A DNA stretch of 63,910 nucleotides from Craspedostauros australis. Lineage: Eukaryota. Shown in pieces: positions 15,397 to 54,319 of this stretch (positions are counted from its first letter, which is position 1; each line of letters begins with the position of its first letter). The notes under the pieces were generated by a model. That model saw nothing but the letters and a program-made list of their open reading frames with translations. It did no database searches and was not told the origin of the DNA. The position numbers and the translations under genes are program-made. Location of the stretch: assembly GCA_030167865.1 (NCBI GenBank), contig JALAGF010005407.1:1-63910 (forward strand). Reading direction: 5' to 3'.

Positions 15397-16998
15397 CGCT
15401 TACCATGGCAACGGAATGACAATGTGATAATATGTAGGACCGGATGGCATCATTGTGTGCTGGAACGATGGACTCCGCAACAGGACACAGTGCCGTCGCT
15501 CTCTCTCTCGTACTTCCTGGATGTCGCAGTAGCTCGTGTAATATGTATTATATGATGGAAGATGGAGACGTGCAATATCTGCTCATCTCTAGAGTTTTAG
15601 ATGCCACGATATTAGATTGTACTGTGGAGTTGTGCGTCTCATATTATGGTATTCTATGTAATATTAGAGTATGGTACTATACATGTGGACAAGGCCGTAC
15701 TCGTGCACGTTTATTTGGGTGTCAGATGATATACCTGGCCTTCGTCAGATATTGGTTCATTTGGGTGCTCATGGCCAAGCGATTTTGGATGAATCGCCCC
15801 CATTTGCGCGCACAACCATGACTCTTTCCGCACCAATTTTTGTGAAGAACAGTCATTGAGACATCTCACAAACACCAACTTTGGCGTTTGTGCTTCCCTT
15901 GGTTTCGTTCTGCGAACAGGGGAGGCTTGTGCTGCGGCAGCGCGGTGAAGAAGTGTTCACACAAACACACCTTTCTCTGCGCACAAACGCGACGCAGCGT
16001 CATCCTCCGAAACCGGTCATTTGCCCTCGCTCGGTTGCACCTGATGCGCGCGAGTCGTTCGTGCGAGTCGAAAGAACGCGATCCGCTGTCGGAAGCATTC
16101 ACAACTCGGAGAGGCACAAGGGAGAAGAACGGAACCGCAGCGCAAGGAGACGCTGTGTGACACAACAAGAGAATCATTTCGCGTTTCTCCCTTGTTTCTG
16201 CCCTGTATCGGTATTCGAGAACCAAGGAAGATCGCACTCCGCAAGGCATCTTCGCCATCCTGTCCCTTCTCTTGTTGCTCTGTGACTGCAACAACTTCGA
16301 TCGTGGTCACCGGAACAAAAGAGGCTGCCGCCACCCACAGAGCCTCGGTACGACTAGGTTTGGATCCAACCTCCCCCTGGATGGCAACAGAGACGAACAG
16401 GAACGGAAGCAAAACGAAAAGGGTGTTGCACGTACATAGCTCCGCCTTTGTGGCTCATCGTGTCCATCAAGCCCCCAACCGCCGGCCAGGAACATCCAGC
16501 TCAGCAAAGCATCACAGCGACACGGACTGCTCCTTGCTGTCCCGTCGCAGAGCATTGTGCGAACCCATCATCGCTCGTCAGCTCCAGGCAGACTATCGTC
16601 ATCCTTCCAATACATCGCGGCGGATCAAGACAGATCGTAGCAGAGTGCAAGTCATCCACCAACCTCTCTACGTATCCATCCATCCATCCATCCAACTTAT
16701 TTCATCCACTTATTTCATCCATCCACCAATCGACCGCGCTGGAGTTGGCAACTGTCTGCATCTGGGTGCTTCTGGCCGCATCGGGCCCATCACAGTGAAG
16801 CTCACCGACATACCGCACCACACGAAAGTATTGCGGTTCCAAAGTGCAAAAACGCCCTCCAGATCCTGACCTCGCACAGACAGACAGCGACCTTGAGCAG
16901 TGCCATCCATTGTTTGACGCTTCAAAGTCAGAGCCGTAGCCATAGCCACAGCCACATTCATCGCCACATTCATCGCCACAGCCACAGGCACCACCAGC

Positions 16999-24855: not shown

Positions 24856-25495
24856 TCCGGCATACTGCATCCGTGCTCGTCGAAGGATGGGACATGAACG
24901 AGCGGGTTCGACGACAATCCCATCTAGTCGCAGCATAGTCCCAACACTCCTTCGTGCGAATATCGCAACTTTGGGTTGGCACGAGTGTCTCATGGATGCA
25001 ATCGCTCTCGTGCGGGCAAACACATGTGGTATAAATCAGTGTTATTGTAACGTTCTCGTATGCCCCATGCCAGTAGAAGGGCAGCCGTTGTTCCCCTAAT
25101 CTCTGCACATACTCGTAGTCGTACAGTACTGCGAGCTAGCTCGTTGTTTGGTACGACTACGAGCTTGCACCCAACGAAAAACGAAGGAGGCGAAAACGCT
25201 CCCGTTCTAAGGGAGCTGCGAGATATTACTATTAGAAGGTAAATCGGGGAGACCCGAACGCGCCCTTTTCGTCGTCATTCTTGGTCACAACACAAAGGGA
25301 ACGAGTGTTTTCTCAGACATCCCACGCAACAAACCACCAACGTGATGCCCTTGCGGAACAGGCATCCATTGCGGCCAACGCATCCGTCAACACCACCTCC
25401 CCCTTCCCATTCTCGCAGCATTGCAGCATCGCAGCATCGCAACACTGTCACGCTGCAACATGGCGCGGCGGGGTGCGGAGACATGGCACGCGAGC

Positions 25496-27547
25496 ATGAA
25501 CAAGAAGCTCCTCTGCATTTTCGGCGTCTTCTATGTTTGCTTCTGCTCCTTCTCCTTCTTTCTGACCGAGATGATCCGCATCGAAGATGGGCCACTCAAT
25601 GGATTAGTCCTCAGCAAAGGCGGCGGCGTTGCCACGATGGGATCGGCGCAGTTCTTGGAAAAATCGATGGGGGCCAGTGCTGGCGAAGGTTCCGGCATCG
25701 CCATGACCGAAGCTGCATCCGGTCCAAATGGAGCGTTGCGAACCTCTCGGCATCGGCAACCACAGCCGTTGCAACCGACTCTCGCTCTGCTGTATCCACC
25801 AGGGATGATCGGTGGTTATCGCAACCAAGTTCTTCGGTTCATCGGATTCGTGTCGCATGCGCAATCCGGGAATATAACTCAGTTGCTTCTCCCCACCCTG
25901 GTTTGGACGACGCAGTTTGAGGCATCGGGAACGTTCTATCCCATAGCGATGGAGGACGTGTTTGATGTGGAGTTTTGGAACGAACATGCAGAGCACCTTC
26001 CGTTGTTGGTACCGTCGATCGATGGTGGGGATTGCTGGACAGCCAATGGCGCAGGCGCGCAGCTGGCAACTGAACAAGACTCAATGCCACCGCTCATATC
26101 GCCATCATCCTTCGCCGACTCGCATGGATGGTTCAATGCCACCACGGCACCGCCATTGTTGGAGTCTGTTTGGGCCAACTCCCCATTCCTGGTGCCAATC
26201 CAAAACATCAGCTACGAGATATCCACGGGTCAGTCCAGTCTGAAGCCAAGGAAGCTGGACCTGCTGGACGACGTGGCACACTGTAAGCACCCACTTGTGT
26301 ACGGCGGAGGGAAGGGAGCGGGGCGGCTTTGGAATGACTACCTCCGACTTTCAAAAGATGCTGTCGGCAAGAAGACTGCCAAAGCCAAAGCTGCAGAGAA
26401 ACAGGCTGCCGAGCTGCTTCGATGGACGTCGCGGGCGCTGCGACCTTCGATGCGATGGAGGCAGAATGCAAATGGTTGCGTTGCCCATCATCTCTCCGAT
26501 GCCGAGGGGCTCGATTTGGATGTTGCGCGACCCTACCTTGCGCTGCACGCGCGTGTGGAGGTTGACATGGTAAGTGCCTTGCGATTCCAATGATGAGGTT
26601 GCCGACGACGCGTAGGCCGCCTTTGTCGCGCAAGTGCGCCTCGCCGCTTCGGTGAACGAACACGATGGCATACTCAGTGTTGTTCTCGTATGAAATGCTC
26701 CACCACTAACGATCTGCTCAACATGTGTGGACCGTTCGCCACGACGTCCACCAAATGCCACAAAATCAGATGGTGCATCGGTGCGGGAAAGACATGGAAT
26801 TCAACTTGACGAAGATCCTTGGCATGGTCGACGCCTTCATCGCGGAGGAGCAGTCAGAGACTGGCTCCCCGTTCGGCGATCAACAGCCAGGAATCTTCCT
26901 CGCCGTTTCCAGAACAGGGATGCACGAAGAAACGACAAATCGCAAAGTCAAGGAACTAGCGCGCCAGAACGTAGAGGCCTTGATGGAGCGGAGCCTCAGC
27001 AACTTGGACGACGCCAGCACCATCGATTCGATAAGGCACGATCATGCATTTCCTGTGTTTGAATGCGGTGAGATTTGGATGAAGAACTGGTACGAACACG
27101 AGGGCATTCCCGAGAACTTCTTTGGGTCTTTGGTGCCATCGGTGATGAACTTTCATCTTGCCACAACAGCGTCCATCTTCATTGGGGTCGCACACAGCAG
27201 CTGGTGAGTACTGGGTGGCGTCTGCTCGTATCGTATGCAGCATTTTGGACGACCTGGTGCGTGTGAGAAATGAGGTCGAGCTTCCCACACCGATTTACGA
27301 TATCACGCGTGTTAGTATGTACTGTACGCTCTCCTGCTGCTGAACAAGGTGCTCACGACTCACCCTCCATTGCTGATTCTGCGCTTTTGGTCGTTGCAAC
27401 ATGTTTTGTCCGGAGTGAAGGAGCACCCATGTGTGGACCAATCGGTACCATCAGGGACGTGGTTCGACGAACTTCGAATACACCAAGGATGGAATTCGAA
27501 GGCTCGAGAACGGAGGGTTGCCAAAACCTCACGAGAATTGCAAATAG
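25496..27547 (+). CDS. Type II membrane O-fucosyltransferase-like (GT-B) protein, 3 exons (25496-26569, 26770-27203, 27421-27547; ~544 aa)
   Basis: N-terminal TM anchor; motifs PGMIGGYRNQVLRF, YLALHARVEVDM and FIGVAHSSWSTHVW. GT-AG junctions ATG|GTAAGT..CAG|ATG and TG|GTGAGT..AAG|G restore the frame to TAG at 27545-27547. An alternative start lies at 25460. Confidence 0.7.
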
Positions 27548-35700: not shown

Positions 35701-36299
35701 CCGACAAGGAGGAATGGGACATCATCGATGGCAATGCACGAACCAACGTGCAGAATCGGAGACCCGGCTCCTGCGGTAGGGCAGTCAGCTCGACGAAGGA
35801 CAGCACCAGTCGCAAGATCGCCATCAGTTCGCACGATGTCGACGGCATTAGCCACAGTGATACAGACAGCGACGGCTCCGACAAAACGTGCGAAAACTAC
35901 GAAAGTTCCTCTGACGAAGACGACAACAACAACAACACCTCAGATGAGTACGACACAGACCCTGAAGACGACAACTACGGCGATTCTGATGCGTGCGATG
36001 ATGAAAGCGATCGTGAGGGTAGCGACACCTCCACCACTCTTGACACTGACTTCGAAGGAAGACCAAAGAAGATGGGCAACACGAACGAGGTGAAGATCAC
36101 GAGGAAACGAGCCGTTAAGCAATCAAAGCCCTCCGAGGCGCGGAAACGACAAAGATCTCCCGGCGACAACAGCACGCAGGAGAGAGGGCGACAACCACCA
36201 TTGGTCGCAAGGGCTATGAACTCAGGTCTTTCCCCTTCCCTTGGAATCAGAAAACAGCCAAAAAAGGCCAGGGAAGCTGCTGCCAATGTGATCCATTAG
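32731..36299 (+). CDS. GNAT acetyltransferase + 2 LysM-like + HMG-box protein, 2 exons (32731-35174, 35498-36299; ~1081 aa)
   Basis: GNAT: AELSLLGAIGCGRVLV...LQATKNSIPFYESIGF. LysM-like: KTLSAIAKTLKVDVWDILFLN...GTLLYVP and ENDTPRKISQKFRVSCNALVMAN...GTRVKV. HMG: PDRPATSFDLF...QKWRMLPDKKQQRY. Intron TG|GTAAG...CAG|G gives YWFVLTYIPDLQWC. Confidence 0.8.
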
Positions 36300-39200
36300 A
36301 TTCGAAGCCATTGTGAATGGGTCGGATTGGATTGAGTGTTGGCTGTATTGAAAACGGTTGCATATATAAACTCACCGTAATGGAGTAACTCCCGGCGGAA
36401 CGAATATGATAGCTGAATCATGCCTGTGTAACCGTGCAAACGAAGCACACTTAATGGTCCGATTTGAGCGCACAGGAACAGCCAACCACTACACTCCATC
36501 TTGAATTCGAAATATGTCTACGCGTTGTGTTGTTGCTGTTGCTGTTGCTGTTGCTGTGCCCGATTTGTTGGTTTGGTGTCTGCAAAGCCAGCGCGGTTGC
36601 TGGAATCTCCGAGCATCGCATTCGCAACTATTTTAACCGCTGCCGTTCCCACTTCGGCCTTCTCTTCAGATCACAAGACAACGATTGAAGGCTTTCACTC
36701 CATTGTTTATCGCGCGGAGCGGATTTAATATTCCTTCAACCTGCTGAGAAATGAAGGTTTGAACACCATTGGCCCTGATGGCTTTCGCTTGTGCATGCGG
36801 AACTGTTGCTCTGCTGCTGGAATGCATCGTGCCATTGCTGATAGCATTATTGCTGATGCTGCTGATATTGTTGATGTTGTTGTTGATGAGGAAAGGCTTG
36901 GTTGGATGCCGATGGTGACAACACTCTGCCAAACTCCGACATCTTGGAAAGATCAGTGAGAGTTTGCCACGCTTTGAGATCTCTCTGTGCAACAGCTCGA
37001 ATGAGGAGCAATACAAGAGCAACCGAAGAAAACAGTTGTGGTGATGAAAAGCTGGATGAATTCCTGAATGAGACAACAGTCTCACGAGACACAATTTCGC
37101 AATCGGAAAGGCAAACATCACATTGAGCAAGCTCGTGTACGTATTACTTTTCGTCAATTCAATTCGTGTTCATCACAAGTATTGAGCAAGGCGTCATCGT
37201 TAAGCATAGATACCCCAATAGAAACGGGAGAATACATCGTAATATTCGATGGTCTAGAGAGTGAAATGGAGGTGAAGAATACGTGCGCCTACCATGCGTC
37301 TGCTGTGTCCAAGTCGACTTATGAAGTTCATCGGTTCCGAAACGGACGCATCCAACGATCATTGCAATTGTGTACTCAAAGCTGCAACGCAATCTATGAA
37401 ACGGCATTGTCTACATAAATTCTGTTCGCACGAAAATACGTTCACCGACAAATGCAGAAGACGACTCTCCTCATGTATCACTCCCGTTGGAAAATCGATT
37501 CACGCGAACGTTTGTATTGTTTCTTTTTTCGAGTACAAGAACAAACATCTGAATTCATACCACAAGTGTATTCATACCACATTATGAGACCATGAACATC
37601 GCTAGTGAAAGAGAAGGACCTTCCTCAGCGATGACGAGACGATGACTAGAAAAGGCAGTTAGGAGATTGTTGCTCTATCGCCACAATTGTCTACCGGTGT
37701 TGAGAATAGGTACTTTCTTGGTTTCTGACCTTCCTGCCAATACAAGTTGTCAAAGAAATGGACTAAAAATACTATTCTTAGCTCTGCAGATATGATTTCG
37801 TAATTTCTCATTTTGAACTTGAGTTTTGGATTCGAGTTGCTCAAGCTGTCTTCAAAGCGGCCGCAGTCGCTCACAACTTGCGAGAACAGAGCACCACCAA
37901 CTAAAGCTGTTCACTTGGCCTACTAGAGTTGTGAAAAGAGCAATGTTCGAATGGATGTGTCACTACATTTCGCAAGCATACTGAATTCAATCTGGAGTCG
38001 AGCTACGTAAAGGTTGACTCAAGAGTCAAGCACCACTCCAATACGGATAAAAATAGCCGAGTTGTGGTGCTTTCGCAACGAAACCGCTTCGTCAATGTGC
38101 CGGAGCAACCACGAAGATACCATGTCCTGCGTGGGCGGATTTTTTCCATCACAAAACCTGGTGTATTGGAGCCACAATAGTTGAATCAAGAGTGCAACGA
38201 AACGTAGAAGAGGAAGCCCCTCACAATTGCGAATCAACATGGTTACCAAGCGGGGAAGACATTCAAGTTTACGTCGACAACCCGGCTCTGTCAGTCAAAG
38301 CCCTGGAACCGACAATTCGGAAGAACCGATGTGATGGCTTCATTGCACCACTACGTTCTTCTAACAATCCATGAGCACATAAGAGACCCCGTGGGTGCAA
38401 GCAAAACACCAACAGAAGTATGCACGAAGGCGAGAGGTGACAAGATGGCATTTGTCCAACCAGGCAGCACAAGCCAAGAATCAAGTACACGGTTATCAAA
38501 GTCTTGTGCCCACATCGATCGCTGGAACGCGGATGCAATTTTGGTGTTTCGAACGCGCGAAGGACCGCGATTCCATCACATTTGTGAATAGAAAGGGAAT
38601 GTTTGATTGTATGTTGCGCCTCCGGATCTCTACGACTCCTTTCTTAAACTTGAGTCGGCAAATGACTCGACGTGGCTCATTTGTGATTACTCTCCCCATC
38701 ATACATCCCATTTCAAAGGTCCTGTCAATACTTGGTCGGAATCAGCATAGCCATACTACTATGAGAACACATTCCATCAGGTTGCTGACACAGTCGAAGA
38801 ATTTTCCAAACAATACAAACCAGTTCTCATTAAAAACGCCACTTCTTGTGTCTACTCTCATCTTCGCATATCTTCAACCATGTGGTTCTCGTCATGACGT
38901 TGTCATCATCTTAACGTGTTGATGATGTTGAATGTACGTGATTGTTGACGACCTGAGTTACAGGCGCTAAGATGGTCAGATTGTCCTTTCAGGAATGAGA
39001 TGATAGTTGGATGAATGACGTCACGCAAACAAGAGATGCAGTCTCCAAGAAGCCAACAAGCAGACGGGTTCCTTTTAGAGCAGGTGGTGTTCAATCAATG
39101 GCAAGCATGTGCGCATGGGCGCCAACCAAATCATCTCTTTTTCGCTGCCAGGTGGAAACGAAGCACATTGCGCTTTTCTGTATTGCAATACAAGGCAAGA

Positions 39201-41200
39201 GGTATAAAGTAGTTGCTTTTCTTGATTCATATGGATCCGATCTCTGTTGACTCATCCTTCATTGCTCACGCCTGTTGGAAATGAAGTTCCAAGCAATCCT
39301 TGTAGAACACGATTCTGTACATTGGAACCGGAAATACAATATTGAATGAATTCTGTGCTCTAAAGGAGATTCAACAGAATTCAAGAAAGGAGATTGAAAA
39401 GGTATTTTGTTGTTGGTTGCGACATCGATCCTTGCTTTGCACTTCGAGTCCATTCCCACGTGCAACTGTTCAGACTTTCGGGCGAACGTCTGGTATGACT
39501 GAAAAAGATAGATTGTCGCCAGAGGTGACTCCCTTCGGATGAGCAATAGATTCAAGTTGGCGCTATGGTGTCACAAAGATCTTGGGGAAGCATGTTTCGA
39601 AGTCGAACTTTCGAATCGCTACAATACAATCCCGTCGAACAAGGATTCAACGGCAAATGCTATCGCTCCTCATTTTTCCTCCAAGTTGTTGGAAAAGTCT
39701 ACCATGCCATGAATGGAGTGGCCCAGAACAACCTAGTTTTATTTAATTCTGAAGGCTCTTTTGTCGTCAAAGACCGATCCCGTTGCTTGGAGTACATGTC
39801 AAGTTGTAATGACCCACATCAAGTCGGCAAGAAGCAAAGACGTGTGTATCGGTCATAGTTTCCGTAGTTGAACAAGGTTCCTCTGTGTCGGTGAACCAGT
39901 CCCATCATTTCGTACGTGGTGCAACAAATCAAACTTGGAACGAGAAACTCCCAAGCCCATACGGAAAATCTGCTAGGTCCGCGCAACCAACTTGTTCCTC
40001 GACAAATACAACAAGGATTGACAGTGAATAGCAAAGAAAATCCAATAGTTGGGACCAAGTGGCAGGAACTATGAACATAACACTTTGAAGATTCCAAAAG
40101 TCGAATGTCTCGGTTTGTGGTCGTAAAGATTATTTTGTTCAAGCACAGGGAGGGAGGCATCACTGTTGCTGCATTCCGTTTTGCTTGGCCGAAGCTAAGA
40201 TGTGATACAATGAATTGTTTGCAAGAGATCGTATGTTTGGTTGTGTGTAATGCCCTACTCCTCCATCGACTTGACTGCGTTGTATGTCTTGTTGGTTGTT
40301 TGCTTCGTGCTCTGCAAGGAGGAACATACGTGGAACCCTTTGACACTTTGTGAGGAACAAGGACGGAAACAAGTTAACATTGCTGCTGTCGGTATCCTTG
40401 GTGTTCTCTTGTATTGAGCGCGATTTATGTGTATTGCGACGAATCGTTGGGATGGAGGGCTCAGAAACTGAGAAAATTGTTGGTCAGGCTTGAACCTTCA
40501 TTCGAGAAAAGTACGCACTCCAACATTCGTTGTGCAAGGATGCTAGCCCAACCGGAAGCCAACTTGTTGAAATCATTTTGTTGCCTTCCGACATCCGAAT
40601 ATCCATTGGCTAAGAACAACAATCAACGACGCCATTCAACAGCCCTGCTGCGTGCTAGAGGAATTTCGTATCAGTGGAATCCTTGTTGTCTTGCAACTTT
40701 TCAGCACATCGTGTTTCCGTCGGGAACATTCGTTGTATTCGCCACGAGTGAGAACAATCGGAAAACCGTCATCGCTCTTGATTGCGGCAGAAAGTGTAGG
40801 AGTTTCAGGTTCAGTCGGAGGCGAGCGCACACGATCATATTGCTGGAGTCAATCGAGCGATGTCAAGAATCAATGTATCGCTTCCCGAAGTAGCCACGAT
40901 GATGCATTCAACAAGAGTACGCTGAGATCCTTTGGCTTCTCGGCAGTCCGTAGAAAATGTGCACGCAGCATTTTTCGTTTGTGCAACATCAAAGCCGAGG
41001 ACTCATTCGATGATCAACTTTTTCAGCTGATTCAGATGGTGCGTAGTATGAATCTATGGGAATGTCATCACACGTTTGTTTGGCCCGTGTCGTCCGATGA
41101 TTCAAATTGAAATTAGATTTTTCTTGTTGATTATTGTGGTTTGTATTGTTGATTTACTTTTTATCGCGATGGTTTGTTTGTATTAGCCGATGATGCAAGT
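36300..41200. other. AT-rich, ORF-poor segment, possibly a decayed gene or mobile element
   Basis: No ORF exceeds ~175 aa. A hand-counted sample (37681-37860) is 38% GC, clearly below the flanking genes. Stop-interrupted coding-like tracts are present. Confidence 0.45.
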
Positions 41201-41254
41201 CTTTAAGTACATTCGGTAGTAGTGTATGGAATTGATGGATGTATTGTTGCGCCG

Positions 41255-42236
41255 CTACTGCTGCCTGTTACCTAAGGTGCTGATGACACGGAACTGGACC
41301 ATCGGGTTGCGCCAGTCGTAGTTCTGGGTGTTTGGGAGGGTGTTGGTGGGAACATCAGACTGGATGCCGCGGTGGATGTGAACGAAGCCCTCGCCGTTGC
41401 CATCAGCGTTGTTTCCGGCTGGACAGGCTGGTCCTGGGATGGAATCACACTGCTGGTTGTTGACCTCGGTACCGGAATCGTATCCAACTCCGCGGAACAT
41501 GTCACCTGGCCTGATCTTGGCACCGTTCAAGGCGACGAAGGTGCAATTGGCGATGGAATTGAATTGGAGATCGCCTGAATGTATCATGTCATCGGATGCG
41601 AGAATGGAGCAATGGAGGCAGAATAGTGTGAGAGATGTGTTGCGATGCGATGTCATACGCTGGCTCAACAGCGACAACAGCGACAATGGCGAAGAAGCCA
41701 CCGGCAGTACACATGCAAGTCCGCACGCACGCGCGCGTATTCATTCATTAGGGGATTCTTATCTATCTCATAACTTATCAATCGTTGGTGTTGACCGCCA
41801 TGGTGGCGATGGTGACGTAGTAGCCAGCTGGGACGGTGACTGGGATATCGAGGCTGCCGCCTGGTCCGATTGGGCCTGGCACGGCCATGGCGGTGGCGAC
41901 GCCTGGCTTGCCATTGTATGCGGTGACCAAAGCAGATGGATCTCCGTTCTCGGCAAGGGTGCCCAATGCATCGCTGGCGGGCACGCCCAAGGTGAAGAGA
42001 GGACCGGCGGCACGGGTGTGGACCATGACGAAGAGGCCGCTGAACGGTTGGCGGAAGGCCAGGTTGGTGACGCGGACATTGAGGAACTGTGGCCCATCCG
42101 GGCTGCTGCCGGCCTTGAGTCGGCGAGTGGCCTTGAGGATGTCAAAGTCATCGACCTTTTCGTTGTCGGAGTTGTTGGCGAGGAGGGTCGTGGCGGAGGT
42201 CACGAGGAGAGCGAGGGTGCTGGTCTTGAACATCAT
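41255..42236 (-). CDS. Secreted spondin_N-domain protein, 2 exons (42236-41779, 41540-41255; ~247 aa)
   Basis: Signal peptide MMFKTSTLALLVTSATTLLA; VRVTNLAFRQPFSGLFVMVH...LFTLGVPASDALGTLAENGD...MAVNTND|CFVALNG...YDSGTEVN...IPGPAC...EGFVHIHRGI...DWRNP. The two halves lie in different ORFs and join in frame through an AT-AC intron. Confidence 0.85.
41541..41778 (-). other. Putative non-canonical AT-AC spliceosomal intron (238 nt, U2-type donor ATAAGT)
   Basis: Minus strand reads AAC GAT TG|ATAAGTTA ... CAATTGCAC|C TTC GTC GCC. Splicing removes an in-frame TGA and creates TGC (Cys). Confidence 0.75.
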
Positions 42237-42630
42237 GTTGTAGCTTGATTGGTTGATTGGTTGGGTAGTCGGCTGATTTTGTGAGTTGCTTTGTGAGTTG
42301 CATTGCGAGTTGTGCGGTTGCTGATTTTGTGAGGAGATGACGGATGGAAGTGAATTCGGGGATGCCTTCGAACTCGCAAAGTGATGACCATGGAGACGGG
42401 GCACCGGCTGGGCATGGAGAGGATCGTGCGACTACGACTATGAATGGTACTGACATGTGTGATACTTCTCTCTATCTCTTGTGTTTTGCCAATTTGTGAC
42501 TGCATGGGACTAGCTCCATATCCGTACTCCACTATCTCATGGCAAACATAATAGCACACACACACACACACACTATTTCATTATATTTGCAATACATGGT
42601 TACACTCTTCGTTGATTTCGTCTTCGAAGT

Positions 42631-43395
42631 CTACGGTTCAGAACCAATGACAACTGCTGCTCGATGCCTCGTTGGCTCCAACGCTTCTGTCACCATGTAC
42701 CGTGCAACGTCCAGCTTGGCCATGTCCATACCCAACGCATCCTTCCCCTTCTCTTTTTGGAGGAACCATTTCCCAGATGGTTTGCATTCCTCACCGATGC
42801 CAACAGGACGAACCAACAGGAAATCAATATCCTTTTCGTCCGTGCTACGGTACGCTCGCTCCATCTGCGTGAGATCTCGGACCGCGGTCTTCGTGTTGGT
42901 TCGGAACATCAAGCCCAGAATCTTCCCTCCAAAATGGAATTCCAACGGAGGCCAATCCTCCTCGATGCCGACAGACGTGATAACGACGGCCCGAGTGATT
43001 CCATGTTGTTTCATGGACCGGATCACCATTTGATTTCCAGGGTAGGACACCCATCCTTTCTTCAACGACTTGTCGAAGAATCCGGGCTGTCGGTTGCCCA
43101 GGCACGAAATCACTGAATGCGCGCCCTCGAAATGGGCCGGGAGGTCTGCGTCGTCCCATTTATCGACGGCGACAAGGTTCAGGCGCTTCTTCTGCTCGTC
43201 TGAGAATATGTGTGGCTCCGGACAACCACATTCCCAATTCGTTTCTTCCAGCAGCTTCTTGGGATGTTGTGTCAGCACTGTTACTGATCCGATGGAGGGC
43301 TGCTCCAACAATACCTGGACGACGTGACGTCCGACGTCAGAAAGGCCACCGATGCCGTACAGGACCACGAGCTTCTTGATTGGAGCCGACATCAT
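42631..43395 (-). CDS. NAD(P)-binding Rossmann-fold protein (NAD_binding_10 / flavin reductase-like atypical SDR)
   Basis: Motifs VVLYGIGGLSDVGRHVV, FEGAHSVISCLG, MKQHGITRAVVITSVG, IDFLLVRPVGI and AKLDVARYMV. Confidence 0.85.
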   Translation of the reverse strand: MMSAPIKKLVVLYGIGGLSDVGRHVVQVLLEQPSIGSVTVLTQHPKKLLEETNWECGCPEPHIFSDEQKKRLNLVAVDKWDDADLPAHFEGAHSVISCLGNRQPGFFDKSLKKGWVSYPGNQMVIRSMKQHGITRAVVITSVGIEEDWPPLEFHFGGKILGLMFRTNTKTAVRDLTQMERAYRSTDEKDIDFLLVRPVGIGEECKPSGKWFLQKEKGKDALGMDMAKLDVARYMVTEALEPTRHRAAVVIGSEP

Positions 43396-45405
43396 TCCGG
43401 AGGCTGTCAGGAAGATCTGGGGTATTCGAGGGGTCGAAGATGGCGGCTGGTGCTACTGCTCTTTTTCCTGTTGCGATACTGTTCCAGCGCCTTTTATGAG
43501 CACTCGTTCTTTGGCTTTTTGGTGCGTTGGATCGTGAAGAGGTTCGAACCTTTTGGGATTGATCGAGTTCAACCCCGCCATCAGACTTGGCGACGGAACT
43601 TCTCCTGCTGCGTGCGGACCAGGCGCTCACATGGAGGCCTTGGATAGAGTAGGTAGGTCGTCTCACCATACGAATACCATGCTCTGCGCAGAATCCAACA
43701 CGCTCGCGATCATGGTCTTCGCGTCTCTCGTCTTGGTCGAAGTTGGCTCCAATTTGTTGCTCGGTTTGTGCGATCCAGAAATCTTCCAAGAACACAGAGC
43801 TTGAGTCCCACAGAACACGATGGAACAATCGCATCACTTCTCGCATGGTGTTCGTCAATTATGTCCGTTAGTTGGATTATTACGAACATCCGAGGCGTGA
43901 GCGGGCAACACGACCCATTTTGAGAACCATACATACGGTATATCACAGCGGCTGCGCCAGTGGAACAATTGAGGTTCGCGAGGACTCGCGTGGCGAGACT
44001 GCCAGCTCCGTTCCAACGAGGAGGAATGGCTCGAAGGGTCACGACCGGTTCAGTACGTCCATGCCGGAACACCTGTGGAATCACTGGTCCTTCGGAAGCG
44101 TGGATGGGGGAGATCAACGCCATTTTCGTTCTACCCTTGCTTTGATCGTTGTACGTCTAGTCGTAGTCGTACCTGTCCTGGGGCCCTACAATAGATCCAT
44201 ACTCGTGTATCAACACTGCATTGCGCACAACGAATTGAAGAATTCAAGGAGCTCGTCCGCCGAAGGAACAGGAAGAAGAAGCAAGCGCGCAAGGTGGCAG
44301 CATTTCTCCCCGGCGGAAGAAAAGCGAAACGTAAAATGACAAAGTCACGATAATCACATTGGTCTTTGTCTCAACATTGAAATGACCGGCGACATAAAAA
44401 GACGGCCACCTCCCGTACGAGGGACCAACACCTCGCAGAACATGATGCGACCAGGACATGACATAAAGAACACACGCACAACCATTTCATGTGTATTCAA
44501 TACTTAACCTTCACAGATAGGACTGAGCGAGTAGTTGCGATTCGACCAAAGTATCAACGAGTCCAGCTTGCAGAAGGTTGTGGCTGCTTGCGAATTCTGC
44601 AACCGAGAGACATGGTTGCGACATGACAAAGACGCATAAGAATGACAAAGGCAATAAATGGGGGGGAGAGCAAAGAGCGCCCGAACCTTGCCAGTGTGGT
44701 ATTTCGTGAAACGACAAAAGGCCCAAAGTGTGAAGGGAGAAAGAAAAAGAAGCAACGCCAAACAACATGGCAAACAAGACGCAAACAACACTTCAAGACG
44801 CAGTGCGTGTTGTCTTCTTCGTTGGCGGCCAACGTTGTCGTTGTCGTTGTCGTTGTGCACAAAAAAATCGTCATCGACAGGCAGCAAAGGGACAAGGCCA
44901 GCGAGAGAGAGAGAGAGAGAGGGTGAAACAAGAAACAACACAACCAAGACCACTCAAGACCACAATCTCATCTCACCCATCAAACCGTTCACCTCTACCT
45001 CTATCTCGTATCCGTCTCTGTTGCTCTCCCTTGGCCCGCAGGCTCACCATCGCCCTTGCTCTCGGCTCCACCCCTCTCTGGTGCCGTCGCCATTGCCATT
45101 GCCGTTGCGGCGCCGTTGCTATTACCGTCATCCATCGTCTGCTCGTGGAAGCTCCAGCTCCGAGTGCTCGCAAGGAAACACCTTTACTCGCAAGCGACCG
45201 CGAACTTGACCGCCCAGAAACGCGGCAGCGCGCAACAACCAACACCACCCAAGAACAAGTGTAAACAACTACCACGAAAACAGCCAACAACCGGCGAAAA
45301 CCAACAGGAGAACTCCAAAGTACTAGTAAAAACCACACGAACAGCTCGCTCTCTGTCAGAAGCCAGCATTCTGAGCAAAGTCATCGGCCGCATTGGTGCG
45401 CGAAG

Positions 45406-48400
45406 ATGAATTCCAGTCCAACCATGCTGCTGAATGCCGAAGATGACCGCGGCGCAGCCCACGCTCCGTGGGCCAACACCAACGATCATGCTAATCCCAG
45501 CATCACCAACCGCAACATGTGCGGAAGCAAGGACGTCCTTCAGAACGCCCCTCGAGGAACGAAGGAAGGCGCCTCTTTGCAGCAGCATTCCCACTGGCAC
45601 GGCCGAGAGGGAAGAACCACCAAGAGACGGCAACAGGGCCTGCGCATTCCGCATCAGTTGGCCGTCATCGCCCTGTGGTGCTGCTGCTCCCTCCTTCTCT
45701 CCGCCACTCCGGCGCGCGCTGCGATACCATGCACGAACGACAAGGAGTGCAAGGAGTGGATTGGTTCCAACAGCGTTTGTCTCGTTTCCACCCAAACCTG
45801 CTCGAACCACTTCGCGAGCGGCTGCCTGCACTCGCATGATCCCGAGAAGTATCCCAAGCGCATGTGCAACAGCAACGACGAGCGGGCAGGCAGCCTCAAG
45901 GACGGTAGCTGCATCGCAGACAATGGCTTCAACTACACCGAGATCCGCATCCACCACAGCAACTGGGAGGCCAGCATCTTTTACTCCTGGATGATGCAGA
46001 TCTTCCTCAGCGAACGGCTGGGCGTTCCGGTCACGGTGGGCCTCGACGGTGATGTCAAGAACTCGTTCTACTCGCCGGCCAACACCTTGGAGTACTCTAG
46101 CGAAACGTACTCCTTCCCAGCCATGGAGGTTGCGAATCAAATCCACGATTGCCGTCTCCTATCGAAAGGCACCGCCAACAGCGACCCCGTCATACGAGAC
46201 CTCATCCAGAAGACATCCGGTCCTGACCACTGCCTCCATGTCATGCCAGAGGTGTGGGGAGGCGTGGCGAAGCAAGTGCAGCTCGCGGTGCGGCAGGGAA
46301 TCATCGATCCGGTCGAAGGCAATGGGCAGGTTGGCAAGGTCAGCTGGTACATCCCGACGCACACGGCCGAAACCTACCCAGACTTCACCTCCTACCATGG
46401 GCTGACGGAAGGTCCGCTCGGATTCGCGGAGGCCGTCCAGGGCACCGACTCCAAAAGGCAGGAGCTGGCCTCCATCTTCAAACGCCCCACGACGTGGAAG
46501 GACTACTGCGCCGACGTATCGCCCAGCAATTGCGCGGAGCCTGACCTCGTGGCGCAACGTGCCCCCGACGAAGACGAAGGCGGGCGGTACTTCCTGGAAT
46601 CCGCCTTCACGGGACACTTCCGAGCAACCGACGACAACAACTGCACCCTCTCCGACAAATGCACGGGTCACATCGCAGCTCCGCCATGCTCCTGGACATC
46701 CTTCATCGATGCCCAGCTGTACTGGAACAACGTCCCGCTTTCCTCCAACGGCGAGGAGCCAAATGGCTCCTACACCTACGGTCAGATGGTCGATATCTGG
46801 AAGGCGGCCAACGCCACCAAATCGCATGTCATGATGTGGTGGTGGACACCGGAGGGTAAGTCCATCGCGTCTTCGCGCGCGTGCTTGTTTGTTGCTTACT
46901 TGGCATCATGCGTTGCAATGCAATGCAATGCAATGCAATGCAACAGCACTAATACACATGCTGATCTGATCGCTTCGCGGAAGCCCCGTTGTTGTACTGT
47001 CGTGTTCAACTGTAAAAATGCCGCACAAGTTCTTCCTCGTTCTTGCTCACATCCACCACTCCTGCCAACCAATGCTGATATCCCAACAATCTGTTCTGCC
47101 CGAATGTTTCAAACCCCCAACTATACCTGTCACCGAATTTTGACAAACCACAACCACCTACAGCTCTGGTCGAGACCTTCCGTGGCACCGGCTTTGGATT
47201 TCAGCAGATCTTGCTCCCCGACGCAACAGCAACGTGCAAACGAGCTCGCGTGACGCCTGGTGAACGCTGCTCGTCAGACGAAGTGGAACGTCGCGGGACC
47301 ATCGAGGGGTCTTGCGATTCCGAGGCACACGCATTGCAAAAGGCCATCGCCACAACGTTGGGCATCCGCACGCTGGCGACGCCCGTGGCAGACAGGTCGC
47401 CGGCCTACGAGTTCTTGCGCAGCTTCAGGATTGACAATCTGGACATGAACGAGATTTTGCACAACTGGATCGTCTTGCAGCAAGACCAGTACGGGCACGA
47501 TGCTCGCCAGGCAGTCTGCGACTGGATTGTGGATAATCTGGAGACTCTGGACGACTTCATCCCGCTGGGATACCCTCGCGAATTGTCGCTGGAATCCACG
47601 TATGACCAAGGATACCTCGTCGCCGCACAAGTGATTGGCGGCGTTGCTGCTGCCTGCGTCGTTGCCATGGGCACGTTTATCTTCTACCGCCGACACACGC
47701 GGGTGATGGTGTTCGCGCAGGTCAACTTCATCCTGCTGCTGATCGCAGGACTATTCCTGGTGACAATCGCGGCCATCGTGTACGTCGTGGAACCGTCATC
47801 GTCCATCTGCATCGGTAGAGAATGGTTGGTCGCAGTCGGATACACGCTCGCGCTTGTCCCCCTGGTCGTCAAGTTCGCCGCGCTCAACCAGGTCGTCCAG
47901 TCCGCGCGGAAGATGAAACGAGTCAGGATTTCGGCGAAGGCCATGTTCTGCAGAGTCGCTGTGTTGGTAACGATCGTCATGATCTACCTCACGGTGTGGA
48001 CCATCATGGATACACCGAGAAAGGTCGAGGAGCGCGAGCTTGTGGAGGAGGGCGGCGCGCAAGTTGTGTCCTCCCTGAAATGTGGATCCAACTCGTGGTT
48101 GTGGGAAGGACTCGCCTTGGGATGGCAAGGCTTCCTACTCCTCATGGCGACAGTGCTGGCGGTGCAAACGCGCAGCGTGCAGCAAGAATTCAACGAGTCG
48201 CGGTCGCTGGGAACCTTGGTGTACTCCCACTTCATGTTCATGGTCCTGCGGATCATGGTGAACTTGCTGGAAAATCAGGGCACCATCGAGCCGAACGTAA
48301 GCTCCGCCACGATATCCTTCCTCCTGAGTTTCGACGTACTCTTTGCCATGTGCATCTACCTGGCTCCGAAGGTCATGGAAGCGCACAAGAAGCCAGAACC

Positions 48401-48767
48401 GTACCGACGGAAAGGGTCTTCATCCACGCCTCAAACGAACGCCAACAATGGAAACACACACGGCTCTCGCCATTTCCGCCCATCAGGCGGGGAACGCCTC
48501 CGCGGCACTCTGCAAACATCGACCCACAAGAAGAAAGCTAAGTTTTCCAGTTGCTCGAGCACGCCAGGGCGACAGCAGGAATCACCGAACAAGGCGCAGA
48601 CGTTCGAACCCTTCCACCAGAGCAAGCATAGCGGAGAAGATTCTGCATCCGATCCCAGCACAGAGGACCGCTTCGGGTCATCACTGGATGACGTAGTGGT
48701 CGGCGCGACAACGTCAACCGCCAAAATCGACGCCACAGCCTACAACATCCCACCGCCGACGGTGTAA
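45406..48767 (+). CDS. Class C (7tm_3)-like GPCR with Cys-rich and periplasmic-binding-protein-like ectodomain, 2 exons (45406-46855, 47164-48767; ~1017 aa)
   Basis: Hydrophobic signal, then CTNDKEC...CSNHFASGCL, NWEASIFYSWMMQIFLSERLG, PEVW and WWWTPE. Seven hydrophobic helices carry class C-like motifs CIGREWL and LAVQTRSVQQEFNESRSLG. Intron G|GTAAG...CAG|CT is in frame. Confidence 0.8.
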
Positions 48768-49159: not shown

Positions 49160-52100
49160 CTACCAAGAATAGATCGAAGCATCATACCCACGGCGATGTT
49201 CCGAAGTGTCGTGACGAGAAGCGGGTTGTGCTGCGTCAGGAGTTTGGCCGCAACCATCAGTAGTATCGCTGGCGATACTGTTTCCTCTCATGCCAATACT
49301 ACTCGTCGAGGTGCTGCAGTCGTCGCTCTTCTCACTGATTTCGATGCTCGCAGTAGCTTGACTGACGAAAGTGACGAGCGTGGGTTGCCGCGGCTGATTT
49401 GGGGTAGGCAATCCCGGGCCTCCTATTGGTTCCGGGAAGCTGCATTCTCCTTCTTTCTGACTTGGCGCAGCGATGCTTGCGCACGATTGTTCTTGCGATG
49501 AATCACGCTGTTTCTTGACGTCCTCGGCTGAAGGCTCTTCATCGAGATCATCCATGAGGATCGGGCTGTCATGACCCGTTGCCTCCACACAGATGGTGGG
49601 AGTGATCCAGCCACTTTGATCGTTTGGTGCAGGAAGTCCATCGTCCGAATCACCAGTCACCGCTGGTGGTTTCATGCTCAGACGAATTTCTTCGCTGACC
49701 CTGTCTCCATGATCCGCACAAGTTTCGATGTTTTGGTCAGCACCAGCATCGATGTCATCATTAGTACCATCATTCTCGCTGGCATCAACGTTGCTTCGTC
49801 CTGCATTGCCATTCGCAAAAAACACAGCAGCATCACCGTGTGCATGGCCATCTTCACTTCCGCAATTCGTGTTGCCCTTATCACCGTCATGAGCGCTGCC
49901 GATGTTGGTGCGACTTGAATGCGCACCTCTGCCACTGACGTCGTCGCTGCCGCCACTGCCACCGCCACAATCGCTGCTCCTGCTGATTCCACCGACGGAT
50001 GTGCTCTGGGAGAAATGATCGACCCCCGACGCTTGCGCAAGATAGTCTTCGCGCTCCGAAGTAGTAGTTACGCCATGCTCCATCGTCGCATCCGCGCAGT
50101 CTTCGTTATCGCCCGAGACCAGATCAATCATCTCTGGATCAGCCTTGTGATCTTTCGCCTTGTCCGAGTCTTGTGAACGCGTCTGTCGCATGACGCCTCT
50201 CAGCTGACATCTGCGGTTGCGCTCAAACCATGTTACCGGCGGCGGTTCTTGGACACCAGCGGAGGCTTCGACAAGAGATGATGCAGCACTGCTGTCATCG
50301 TCATCGCCATCATCACCGTCGTGGTCATGTTCATCAATATTATTGCCGCTGCCGTCGTGTTCGTGCGCGGAGAAGGCATAAGCACAGTAGTATGGTTCCT
50401 CCGAGTTGATGTCCCCACCTTCGTCACTGCAGCAGTCGACAGCGTCGCGGTAGGTCTCTGAATCCCACGGAGAGTCTACGGCAATAGCTTGCTGCAGTTC
50501 CTTTTCATCTGACATTTGTGCATCATGCAACGTTTCCAGTTGGGCTTGAGGCGGTGGCGCAGCTGTCGATGTCCGACGGACAGCCGTCTTTCGAGCTCTT
50601 ATCAGCGATCGGGGGTTAATGCTTGAAGCTCTTCGTGCGGAAGGCGCCTTCGATCGACTGCGCTTTCTCATTCTTTCGCGACCACCTGCGGTTGAGCGAC
50701 GCCGAGAGGCTCTGGCAGATCCCGGGTTGGCACTTTTCCGCTTTTGGAGACGTTTTGGCCTGGCCGCCTCTTTGATTTTCAATGCCTCGGTGCCACCGTG
50801 AAAGAACCGATACAGGCCCCTCCTATTGACAGCTTTGTTCAAGAGCTCGGTTGGGAGATGGATCAATTTCCCATGCTTGGGAAAGTCCAATGCGTGCGCG
50901 TAGGCATCAGCCAGCAACCCTCTCTCCTCCTCGTCGAACGCGAAGTGAATCCCCTTGCCAGTTGCACGGCTGTGGAGCATCCCGATCAGGCTCTGAATGT
51001 CCAAAGATTCAGCCATGTCAGCGATCTTCTGTTGGGTTTCATGAAACCAATTGTCCGACTTCGAGTCCTGCTTTGCGCCCGCACCCTCCATCGTGTTTGC
51101 GGTAGGTGCTGCTGCCGTGTCCGCAGCGGATTTCGCCAGCTTGGCTTCCTTGATCAGCACCTCGTCCCAGCACACCCAGTACCTGTCACCGTCGAGATCG
51201 CCGGAGGCGATGAGGGAGGGAAGTGGAGGTTCGCCATCTCGCGGCAAAGCAAAGTATATCTTCCCAACTGGTTGTGCCTGCAAGAAATTCCAATTCTCTA
51301 CCGTCATGGTATCTGGTCTCTCCACGAGATGTTCCAAAACGCGTGCATGCTCCACCTTCAAGAAGGGTGCTCGCGTGACGAAGATCTTGGTGGTTTTGGG
51401 CCGGTCATTGCGCTGTCTCCAAATGTTGGCAATCCCCGTGACGTAGATGTGATCGAAAGGGATTTGGCCCCCGGTCGAGTCCGAGACGCCAATCAGAGAC
51501 TGGTCGTGGAGACGTTCTGTTGACCCTATGCGTCTCTTCTCAAAGTAGCGCTTGCATTCATCCTCCGGGACCCCGAGCTTTCGCATGAAGGCTTCGTGGG
51601 AGAAAGAAGGCTTGTGATGCATCATGAGCTTGTCGATGCAGCTGTCTGGAAGTGTCTCGCCGTTGATCAGTTTTTGTACTGAGATATTATTTGCCGACGG
51701 GATGAAGCCAGTTTTTGTTATCACCATGACTCCAACGTCTTCGCCATAGGCCGTCTTTAGTGGATTTGGCGAGGGGCCGACCTTCATTTGCGTTGGATCC
51801 AGCTGGATGGGAGTGTTGCGGAAGACCGATGACTTGGTGGAGTACCAGTGCCGCCCTGATCCCTCGCTCGTGACATCGAGCATGCCTTTGAAGATTCCCT
51901 TGGAGGGGACGAAGAGCCGAACCTGAATGGCTGTGATGCCGAGCGCAACGGCCTTTGTCATCCCCATCTTGAGAAACCAAGTCACTAGGTACTCCTGATC
52001 TATGGTGCCAGCACCGTCGTTGCCGTCACCTTCGTTCGCCACGTCGCAATCAGCGGCTGGGAAAAACAGGAAGGCTGGGTTGCGCTTTGTGCTACCAAAG

Positions 52101-53386
52101 AAGTGAGGTTCGGAGCTGAAGAGCTCGAGTCGGTCGATCCTCTTACGAACTGATATGCCCCTGAAGTCTGCGATTGATTGGAAGAAATGATCGATGTGGC
52201 TGCACGGTGGCATATTCGGCCCCCTCGTTTGGACGTAGAAGTAGTCCATGGAGCTCTTTATTTCGGTGAAGCCATGTGTGCCTGGGGCGCGTCCTTGCTT
52301 CCGCTTGTGCGCGCGCCTTGCGATCAGTTCAAACGTCGATGTCTTCGACTCGTCCATGAGCTCGATGGGTGCTTTCTCGTGTGCCTCTTTTGCACTGATT
52401 GTTTTGGTGATTGTCAACAGCCGTTTCCCAAAGATGAACGAAAGGATGCAGGATGGCACGTTGACTTGTGCGGATGAGATGGTGATCTTCTTCACCTCGT
52501 GCGTGGAATTCATTTGGACGCCAGGTATTGCGAGTGTGTTGTTTGTAGTACTCGGTGCGGACTTCGTGGTGGGGCTGGCACGAGAACCATCGAATTGGAA
52601 TGCTTGGGCCCTGTCGTCGTCGTACAACCATGAGAGTGCCATGTCGTTCTTGGGTGAAACATGCGTCTTGGGTCTGGGGCTGCCACGGGCAACGGCCTCC
52701 TTGGCTCTTTGGGCTCTCGAGCCTCCAGCTCTCTCGTATGTTTCTCGTGTTCGATCGTTCTGCGCAGCTGCTGCCTCGCTGCCCCCGCCGTGCCGATGAA
52801 GACCATGATTATCGATAAGATCATTGTTGTCGTCCTCGTCCTCGTGACTCCTGGAGGGGTTGACCAACGGGAGACCATCCGCGGACTCGCACAAGTATTG
52901 CGGAGTCGGTTCGGCATCATCGAAAAGGCTTGGGGGAAGTCTGTATCCCAGCAGCTTCCCATTTCGACTTCGATGTTCGACCAATGCGAATGGCCCATGT
53001 CGACAAAGATCGTCCATGCCCAGCGTGAATGGCTCCACTTCCATACCTGCTTTGCGGGCCGGGTGCACCAGTGCTGCATAAAGATTGTCTTGCGGGTCCT
53101 CCCACACAGGAGAGTAGGTCGCGGTAGTCTCAGCGCCAGTGATGTGACCCGCCCGATCCTTGCCCGCCAACTCCCACAGCCAGGAGCTGTCATCTGATGG
53201 ATCCATCTGCACAGCAACTGACCAGTCGTTGCTCTTGAATGTTCGCCTCAGTTGGGCAGTTGATCCTAATCCACCATTTTCGCCGCCTCCGTTGCTGTGG
53301 CAGCTGGAGTCGGGTTCATGGGGATAGACGATGTATGCAGGCAGCTTTGCGAGTCCACGGGGATCCGGATGTTGGCACAACGGCAT
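49160..53386 (-). CDS. Divergent RNA-dependent RNA polymerase (RNAi-type, double-psi beta-barrel), ~1408 aa
   Basis: Catalytic loop IASGDLDGDRYWVCWD (~51170-51210), plus DGAGTI, AIQVRL...FKGML, LIGVSD, IFVTRAP and ALDFPKHG. First ATG is at 53386; the ORF is open from 53527. Confidence 0.85.
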   Translation of the reverse strand: MPLCQHPDPRGLAKLPAYIVYPHEPDSSCHSNGGGENGGLGSTAQLRRTFKSNDWSVAVQMDPSDDSSWLWELAGKDRAGHITGAETTATYSPVWEDPQDNLYAALVHPARKAGMEVEPFTLGMDDLCRHGPFALVEHRSRNGKLLGYRLPPSLFDDAEPTPQYLCESADGLPLVNPSRSHEDEDDNNDLIDNHGLHRHGGGSEAAAAQNDRTRETYERAGGSRAQRAKEAVARGSPRPKTHVSPKNDMALSWLYDDDRAQAFQFDGSRASPTTKSAPSTTNNTLAIPGVQMNSTHEVKKITISSAQVNVPSCILSFIFGKRLLTITKTISAKEAHEKAPIELMDESKTSTFELIARRAHKRKQGRAPGTHGFTEIKSSMDYFYVQTRGPNMPPCSHIDHFFQSIADFRGISVRKRIDRLELFSSEPHFFGSTKRNPAFLFFPAADCDVANEGDGNDGAGTIDQEYLVTWFLKMGMTKAVALGITAIQVRLFVPSKGIFKGMLDVTSEGSGRHWYSTKSSVFRNTPIQLDPTQMKVGPSPNPLKTAYGEDVGVMVITKTGFIPSANNISVQKLINGETLPDSCIDKLMMHHKPSFSHEAFMRKLGVPEDECKRYFEKRRIGSTERLHDQSLIGVSDSTGGQIPFDHIYVTGIANIWRQRNDRPKTTKIFVTRAPFLKVEHARVLEHLVERPDTMTVENWNFLQAQPVGKIYFALPRDGEPPLPSLIASGDLDGDRYWVCWDEVLIKEAKLAKSAADTAAAPTANTMEGAGAKQDSKSDNWFHETQQKIADMAESLDIQSLIGMLHSRATGKGIHFAFDEEERGLLADAYAHALDFPKHGKLIHLPTELLNKAVNRRGLYRFFHGGTEALKIKEAARPKRLQKRKSANPGSARASRRRSTAGGRERMRKRSRSKAPSARRASSINPRSLIRARKTAVRRTSTAAPPPQAQLETLHDAQMSDEKELQQAIAVDSPWDSETYRDAVDCCSDEGGDINSEEPYYCAYAFSAHEHDGSGNNIDEHDHDGDDGDDDDSSAASSLVEASAGVQEPPPVTWFERNRRCQLRGVMRQTRSQDSDKAKDHKADPEMIDLVSGDNEDCADATMEHGVTTTSEREDYLAQASGVDHFSQSTSVGGISRSSDCGGGSGGSDDVSGRGAHSSRTNIGSAHDGDKGNTNCGSEDGHAHGDAAVFFANGNAGRSNVDASENDGTNDDIDAGADQNIETCADHGDRVSEEIRLSMKPPAVTGDSDDGLPAPNDQSGWITPTICVEATGHDSPILMDDLDEEPSAEDVKKQRDSSQEQSCASIAAPSQKEGECSFPEPIGGPGLPTPNQPRQPTLVTFVSQATASIEISEKSDDCSTSTSSIGMRGNSIASDTTDGCGQTPDAAQPASRHDTSEHRRGYDASIYSW

Positions 53387-54319
53387 GATGGATTGTTGCC
53401 GCAGCGTCCGCAGTGACGACCGACGACAGTGACGACCGACGACGAGTAGCTCGTATGTGTGGAGTACAGGGGTCCACCTGATTGCGAAAGGGACGATGGA
53501 GGTCCCCAACAAGCGCCCTCCAGCCACTCAACCTGAACCTGAATCTGAACTGGCAGATGCGGTCGTTGTCGCCGCGAAGGTGTTTGCGCACTGATACCTC
53601 GTAAGTCTGTTATTATACCGAGACGGCAAAATCGGCTTGCATCGGCAATGCGTGCTGTTGGGGAGTGGAGGACAGTAGATATAGTAGTACGACGATGGTA
53701 CCTGCTGATACTCGTGCCTGTATGCTACGGCGTGTTGAGGGGCGAGACAGCATGCGCAAGTGTAGTCGTGGGGTTTTGTGGTGCCACCTGATGTGTTCTG
53801 CGGGCGTGGACTCGATCCAGAATCTGGGAGATCCTTTTCCTTCTGGGCACACAACAAGAGGAGGGAGCATCTTCCGCCGTGCCGAAAAAGACACGAAAGA
53901 GAGTTCACGCTGTTTCTTGGTCGTGCGGGACTGTGGCTCGAACGGTCTGCACGCCGTCTGCCTAAGTCCTAGAGAAGTGTGGAGGAGAGAAGATTCTCCG
54001 GAGATGCTCCAGAGGCTAAGAACAGGACACTTTCCAGAGAGAGAGAGAGAGAGAGGGGTTCTTGATGCATGGTATCCCTCTGTCTACCACACAGAAAGCA
54101 GAAAGGTTGGGAGAAGATGTTACTAATGTTGGGCTGTTGGCCTGCATGGATGCGTGGTGCTTGGATTCAATTGCCAAAAACAACCCACATGACCCTCCAA
54201 GCCCCTAGGCATGAAGGAGAAATGGGAGCCGGAACCACTCCACGAGTAAACAGGACCACCAGTTCTATGCTAATACGAGTATATTCAGCATAATGCAATA
54301 GATTATTCTGTGCTCCACT

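Follow-up and report, generated by a model that had tools for sequence, protein, structure and literature searches.

AT-AC introns of the major class (U2-type) are rare, SpliceRack listing 15 in human, 6 in mouse, 3 in fly and none in worm or Arabidopsis, with those of SCN4A and SCN5A proven (PMC1557818). The human representatives, the 'AT-AC II' introns of SCN4A/SCN5A and TAF2, have AT...AC ends, a donor that is U2-like at every position bar +1, and neither a U12 donor nor a U12 branch box; their splicing by the major spliceosome is proven and they are conserved across distant species (PMC1557818). The same termini have been engineered into canonical U2-type introns of yeast and human pre-mRNAs, where G>C at the last base is described as the one alteration by which a G1>A donor is known to be rescued, 'although less efficiently' (PMC1557818). 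Among diatoms, minor spliceosome components are reported to be absent (PMC11347168), as are U12 snRNAs and U12 introns (PMC2846911, PMC10639083, PMC11347168). An EST-based category of 'Other AT-AC introns' nevertheless holds 13 cases in Thalassiosira pseudonana and 7 in Phaeodactylum tricornutum (Bartschat & Samuelsson 2010, PMC2846911 Table 2), given in the main text as counts, with neither their genes nor their donor types. Among the titles and abstracts searched, none is devoted to U2-type AT-AC introns in diatoms.

The DNA analysed here (hereafter the window) is a stretch of 63,910 nt, or 64 kb, from the diatom Craspedostauros australis. On its minus strand lies a gene whose two halves are separated by an insert with AT...AC ends, and this is read as a working U2-type AT-AC spliceosomal intron in the gene of a secreted spondin-domain protein, with a probability of roughly 0.6. 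The sequence itself, the junction fixed by homology, signals of U2-like and not of U12-like form, the unbroken coding frame and the host being a diatom are observed directly; descent from a GT-AG intron, removal from RNA and the spliceosome responsible are what we infer. The intron has its ends, its donor and its want of U12 signals in common with the AT-AC II introns, and differs from them in that it is known from sequence alone, in that its host is a diatom and not an animal or fungus, and in that its relatives appear to be GT-AG. With the engineered double mutants it shares the identical pair of changes on a canonical U2-type intron; those, however, are laboratory constructs with measured reduced efficiency, whereas the diatom intron would be a natural case. 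Like the T. pseudonana and P. tricornutum sets it is a non-U12 AT-AC intron in a diatom. Its novelty is consequently less than the original prediction implied, and no new question is opened by it, as introns of the U2-type AT-AC kind are well documented and counts of non-U12 examples already exist for diatoms.

The interrupted spondin-domain gene

The features of the gene are as follows.

41779..42236, minus strand: exon 1, coding part, 458 nt, from the ORF and the sequence; NF038123 profile positions 4-106; tblastn matches end at 41781
41541..41778, minus strand: intron, 238 nt, AT...AC, homology-defined; 5′ end ATAAGTTA, 3′ end CCAATTGCAC
41773..41778, minus strand: donor hexamer ATAAGT, read from the sequence
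41541..41546, minus strand: acceptor end TTGCAC, read from the sequence; an independent contig spans 41451-41609
41255..41540, minus strand: exon 2, 286 nt; NF038123 profile positions 125-200; tblastn matches begin at 41539

Exon 1 opens with an ATG (42236-42234), has an N-terminus that looks like a signal peptide when the ORF translation is read, and encodes the first half of the spondin domain; its last two bases, TG, are the start of a split Cys codon. Exon 2 opens with C, the third base of that codon, and encodes the second half of the domain up to a TAG stop (41257-41255). The minus strand thus reads ...GTC AAC ACC AAC GAT TG|ATAAGTTATG...CCAATTGCAC|C TTC GTC GCC TTG AAC GGT, with the intron, in phase 2, opening with the letters ATAAGTTATGAG and closing with CATCGCCAATTGCAC between TG and C. 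The 238-nt insert and the two junction strings of the original prediction are found exactly in the re-read strand. Joining of the exons gives 744 nt, coding for 247 aa plus the stop, with no internal stop and no frameshift and with every conserved exon-2 motif present. If the intron is retained, an in-frame TGA at 41780-41778 ends the frame after 152 codons.

Exon 1 matches the NCBIfam model NF038123 'spondin domain-containing protein' with an E-value of 6e-18 (65.7 bits against a cut-off of 40, profile of 206 positions), and exon 2 matches it with an E-value of 5.5e-7 (29.9 bits). A HMMER search with exon 1 recovered 514 proteins at E<=0.001, multi-domain forms among them, and 76 at E<=1e-10; named homologs include a 'Spondin domain-containing protein' of Chaetoceros tenuissimus and an Amorphochlora protein. 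Pfam gave no match to either exon even at E<=10, and so membership in the spondin family rests on the NCBIfam model and the 514 HMMER homologs. The label 'spondin_N' originally given to the gene accordingly stands as regards the spondin domain and not as regards the Pfam family Spondin_N. A word-index search with exon 1 returned 256 candidates, none of them significant, and tblastn with the homologs found no paralog of the gene elsewhere in the window.

The junction was located with protein homologs. In tblastn searches of the window with four full-length homologs (P0020, P0005, P0003 and P0012), the matches end at 41781 and resume at 41539, and each homolog leaves a single residue uncovered (158, 131, 241 and 147, respectively) which corresponds to the split codon TG|C. 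Because all four bracket one missing residue, the junction is fixed without recourse to any splice motif. In a MAFFT alignment the joined product passes through the junction free of gaps, with MAVNTNDCFVALNG aligned to MAINTNDCFVALNG in P0020. The motif N[TS]ND.F is present in 58 of 150 listed representatives of the family, with exactly one residue between D and F in all 58; this residue is C in 34, G in 12, A in 9, M in 2 and T in 1, and is never S or W.

All GT-AG, GC-AG, AT-AC, AT-AG and GT-AC pairs which keep a frame of more than 200 aa were listed, and the conserved core NTNDCFVALNG was kept by no pair other than 41778/41541. Joined and unjoined products were also scored with a family HMM built from 32 full-length homologs, the training members of which score 223-335 bits.

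AT-AC join: 267.1 bits
Same-length shifted cut, Thr: 263.1 bits
Same-length shifted cut, Ser: 263.0 bits
235-nt cut between ATTG repeats: 260.0 bits
AT-AG cut of 115 nt: 247.6 bits
GC-AG join scored: 220.6 bits
GT-AG join scored: 214.7 bits
Retained intron: 129.1 bits

Protein homology separates the AT..AC cut from the two shifted cuts of the same length, GA..CA (giving Ser) and TG..GC (giving Thr), by no more than about 4 bits. The AT-AC cut is preferred over these because it is the sole known splice class among the three and because it yields Cys, the commonest residue of the family at this position. By simple reasoning, TAAGT at +2 to +6 of a junction placed by homology is expected by chance in about 1 of 1024 cases and AC at the last two bases in about 1 of 16, and the motif is beyond chance. 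The junction and its AT...AC ends, as homology defines them, are real.

Several other in-frame excisions can be drawn within the same region, namely the 235-nt cut between ATTG repeats, the 115-nt AT-AG cut, a canonical join made at the cost of part of the domain, and a structure-guided intron of the Euglena type. The 4-base ATTG at the end of exon 1 does recur 7 nt before the acceptor. Every alternative nevertheless scored lower on the family HMM and would add or remove residues where the homologs with the motif have exactly one. Folding of the intron gave z = +1.87, with 198 of 200 shuffles at least as stable, and no terminal repeats or duplications were found in it beyond short matches at chance level; as there is neither a stabilising fold nor a terminal repeat, structure-guided or transposon-type excision is unsupported. 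Excision by one of these other or non-spliceosomal routes is considered improbable.

The surroundings of the gene may be described briefly. The window has uninterrupted ORFs of 2645, 1714, 1455, 887, 867 and 832 codons, among the domains of which are the eukaryotic EST1, RdRP, 7tm_3, IQ and EF-hand. The ORF of 2645 codons (16918-24852, plus strand) has IQ calmodulin-binding motifs (4.8e-17) as its sole Pfam match, while that of 1455 codons (49163-53527, minus strand) matches PF05183, the RNA-dependent RNA polymerase domain of eukaryotes (3.4e-18). Among named proteins, those of pennate diatoms (Cylindrotheca closterium, 69%; Nitzschia inconspicua; Bacillariaceae MAGs) match the coproporphyrinogen oxidase ORF (14167-15393) best. 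The genome of P. tricornutum is reported to have 0.7 introns per gene, 53% intron-less genes and over 99.8% canonical splice sites (PMC5859163), and the intron-poor window fits these figures. Candidate canonical introns of about 200 nt occur on the plus strand, where donors GTAAGT (26570) and GTGAGT (27204) stand at the ends of ORFs 25346-26590 and 26710-27204, the first of these donors pairing with a CAG at 26769 (200 nt). Two plus-strand ORFs of 662 and 562 codons (45265-47250 and 47079-48764), the second with a 7tm_3 family-C GPCR domain (5.8e-36), lie in different frames and share about 170 nt, and a short intron or a frameshift is required around 47079-47250; the two frames are also joined if GTAAGT at 46856 is paired with TACAG at 47163. 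The G+C content of 36001-42000 is 0.455-0.486, compared with 0.52-0.58 elsewhere, and long ORFs are few there, the spondin gene lying at the edge of this gene-poor stretch.

Donor, acceptor and spliceosome class

The donor ATAAGT agrees with the U2-type GTAAGT at five of six positions, the single difference being at +1. The U12 donor rule, quoted as RTATCCTT in PMC2846911 (one C may be T), agrees with ATAAGTTA at four of eight positions, with +4, +5 and +6 all different. As written, the donor is U2-like and not U12-like, and the U2-type donor originally proposed is borne out. Pyrimidines make up 19 of the last 29 intron bases. Inspection by eye revealed neither a clear yUnAy branch site within 40 nt of the 3′ end of the intron nor a U12 branch box like TCCTTAAC in its last 45 nt.

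A minor-spliceosome intron of the U12 type has the terminal dinucleotides in common with the present one, and these AT-AC termini are all that speaks for such an assignment here. The donor breaks the rule at three successive positions, a TCCTTAAC-like box is absent near the 3′ end, and diatoms are reported to be without U12 snRNAs or U12 introns, as in the literature cited above. Rfam gave no match on the intron region at E<=1 and none across the window, snRNAs included, a result that covers these 64 kb. A U12-type intron, given a donor and a 3′ end that depart from the U12 consensus and a host lineage reported without a minor spliceosome, is barely credible. The expectation that this lineage has no minor spliceosome, which accompanied the original prediction, agrees with the diatom host and with those reports.

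For a working major-class intron the route of splicing may be sketched. Both terminal guanines would have been changed, GT...AG becoming AT...AC, and U1 and U6 would still recognise the donor, its TAAGT at +2 to +6 being otherwise perfect, such that the first catalytic step could proceed. The second step would then be permitted by a non-canonical pairing between the A at the first base of the intron and the C at the last. This is the same first/last-base compatibility that rescues G1>A mutants of yeast and human pre-mRNAs, and its efficiency would probably be below that of GT-AG. The product would be the 247-aa protein with the family motif NTND-C-FVALNG. A working intron is favoured because the second change is exactly the G>C that rescues G1>A and the coding sequence is clean, and because non-U12 AT-AC introns backed by ESTs have been tabulated in two diatom species.

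Relatives and the GT-AG state

Seven of the 150 representatives (P0002, P0008, P0011, P0014, P0023, P0058 and P0086) end exactly at N[TS]NDW, which means that genes of this family are truncated by gene finders or ORF callers. None of the 150 that continue through the junction has W at this position, and none ends at NTND as the exon-1 ORF of the window does. The NTNDW ends look like readthrough of TG|GT(A/G)(A/G), in other words exon-1 ORFs of genes in which a phase-2 intron beginning with G interrupts the same codon. When proteins of 51-165 aa were searched with exon 2, 16 matches were obtained, three of which (P0292, P0293 and P0294) start upstream of the junction with unrelated residues. 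In all three of these ORFs reading through the junction, Ser stands directly before FVALN(G/S); Ser is what AG|Y would yield, while the window's own frame gives Thr (ACC). A canonical intron of identical position and phase therefore seems to be present in relatives, their GT and AG being deduced from ORF-called proteins and not from DNA. Public collections thus hold both exon-1-only (NTNDW) and exon-2-only (unrelated residues followed by S-FVALN) ORFs of the spondin family, and these half ORFs are probably intron-split eukaryotic genes called as if prokaryotic. A scan of metagenomes fetched 27 loci, all of them continuous NTND|[CA]F and none intron-bearing.

An alignment of the exon-1 half-domain with 59 rows and 106 columns gave a tree in which 27 of 56 inner branches are unresolved; it groups six NTNDW rows with P0037 (support 91/89) and places the window outside this clade, weakly beside P0017/P0109. 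The intron-bearing proteins found therefore represent a different subfamily or lineage rather than established orthologs, and a direct GT-AG ancestor is accordingly a parsimonious supposition. That ancestor would read TG|GTAAGT...AG|C, and the window would depart from it at precisely the two terminal bases of the intron. The compensated pair of changes proposed originally gains support from the relatives, whose ORF-called proteins point to an intron of identical position and phase with G at +1 and a 3′ AG. Among the 150 representatives, none of them a true ortholog, no AT-AC relative came to light.

Transcript-like reads and the fate of the gene

A public run (X1), taken to be RNA by guess ('RNA?') and matched by 0.07 of the sampled words, gave two contigs over 39000-45000. 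The larger (1286 nt, depth about 993, no mismatches) covers 42451-43736 and with it, from end to end, an adjacent gene for an NAD(P)H-binding protein (PF13460), which has no intron and the ORF of which lies at 42634-43452 on the minus strand; the contig gives the likely transcript ends of that gene. It shows that the organism is in X1, very probably as RNA. The smaller contig (166 nt, depth 6) spans 41451-41609 and runs unspliced from exon 2 over the acceptor, reaching 69 nt into intron sequence. Of its two mismatches, neither is listed at 41541/41542; one is a T>C at 41489, a synonymous GGA>GGG on the gene strand in exon 2, which suggests a second allele or strain. X1 yielded no spliced contig or joint over 39000-45000 and no contig over the donor (41778) or exon 1. 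The 166-nt contig is possibly one duplicated fragment of pre-mRNA or of contaminating DNA, and would be equally expected from a gene that is no longer spliced.

The acceptor-side sequence of the window is thereby reproduced in an independent contig, which bears on the reading that one or both terminal bases are sequencing or assembly errors and that the true intron is GT-AG. Nothing positive speaks for such an error, the donor base A (41778) simply being known from one source. The reading would require separate mistakes at precisely the first and the last base of the intron, the X1 contig repeats the acceptor region with no difference at 41541/41542, and the window is free of any N. This reading is very improbable.

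The same run bears on another alternative, in which the donor G of a GT-AG intron disappeared first and its acceptor G followed by accident, and the transcript stops at the TGA and is degraded. The gene would then be a recently formed pseudogene or, in a multi-copy family, a null haplotype. The sole RNA-like fragment is indeed the unspliced contig over the acceptor, the rest of the spondin gene has no X1 contig beside a neighbour at high depth, the size of the family (514 homologs at E<=0.001) makes the loss of one copy plausible, and an AT-AC ortholog was not found. The gene, however, shows no coding decay: it has no stop or frameshift and at 267 bits scores inside the family range. It can also be reasoned that a further neutral change landing on the very last base of the intron, and producing C, is improbable alongside 744 clean coding bases. 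The single allelic difference in exon 2 (41489) is synonymous, which as one observation (n=1) weighs weakly on the same side. A splice-dead gene or allele is on the whole unlikely, with a real share of the probability left to it, and a working U2-type AT-AC intron remains the preferred reading.

The original prediction also proposed that the intron could act as a splicing/NMD switch, since its retention stops translation at once. This special role is unsupported: the immediate stop results from the intron phase together with the GTAA/ATAA donor, and canonical relatives would stop on retention as well (TGG and then a stop). Intron retention is reported to be a prominent form of alternative splicing in P. 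tricornutum (PMC5859163), and slow AT-AC splicing as a brake is possible. The fuller proposal, that the intron is a recent compensated double mutant of GT-AG, spliced slowly by the major spliceosome, and that the balance of splicing against retention and its TGA sets output as a condition-dependent brake, is quite doubtful.

In an annotation, the spondin gene of the window would appear as a 152-aa fragment. If the intron is spliced, it would be a clean natural example of the first/last-base rule of the major spliceosome, in a lineage reported to be without a minor spliceosome, so that its assignment would be unconfused. It has the small added interest that relatives seem to have kept the GT-AG state, in which the 'before' of the two changes would still be visible.
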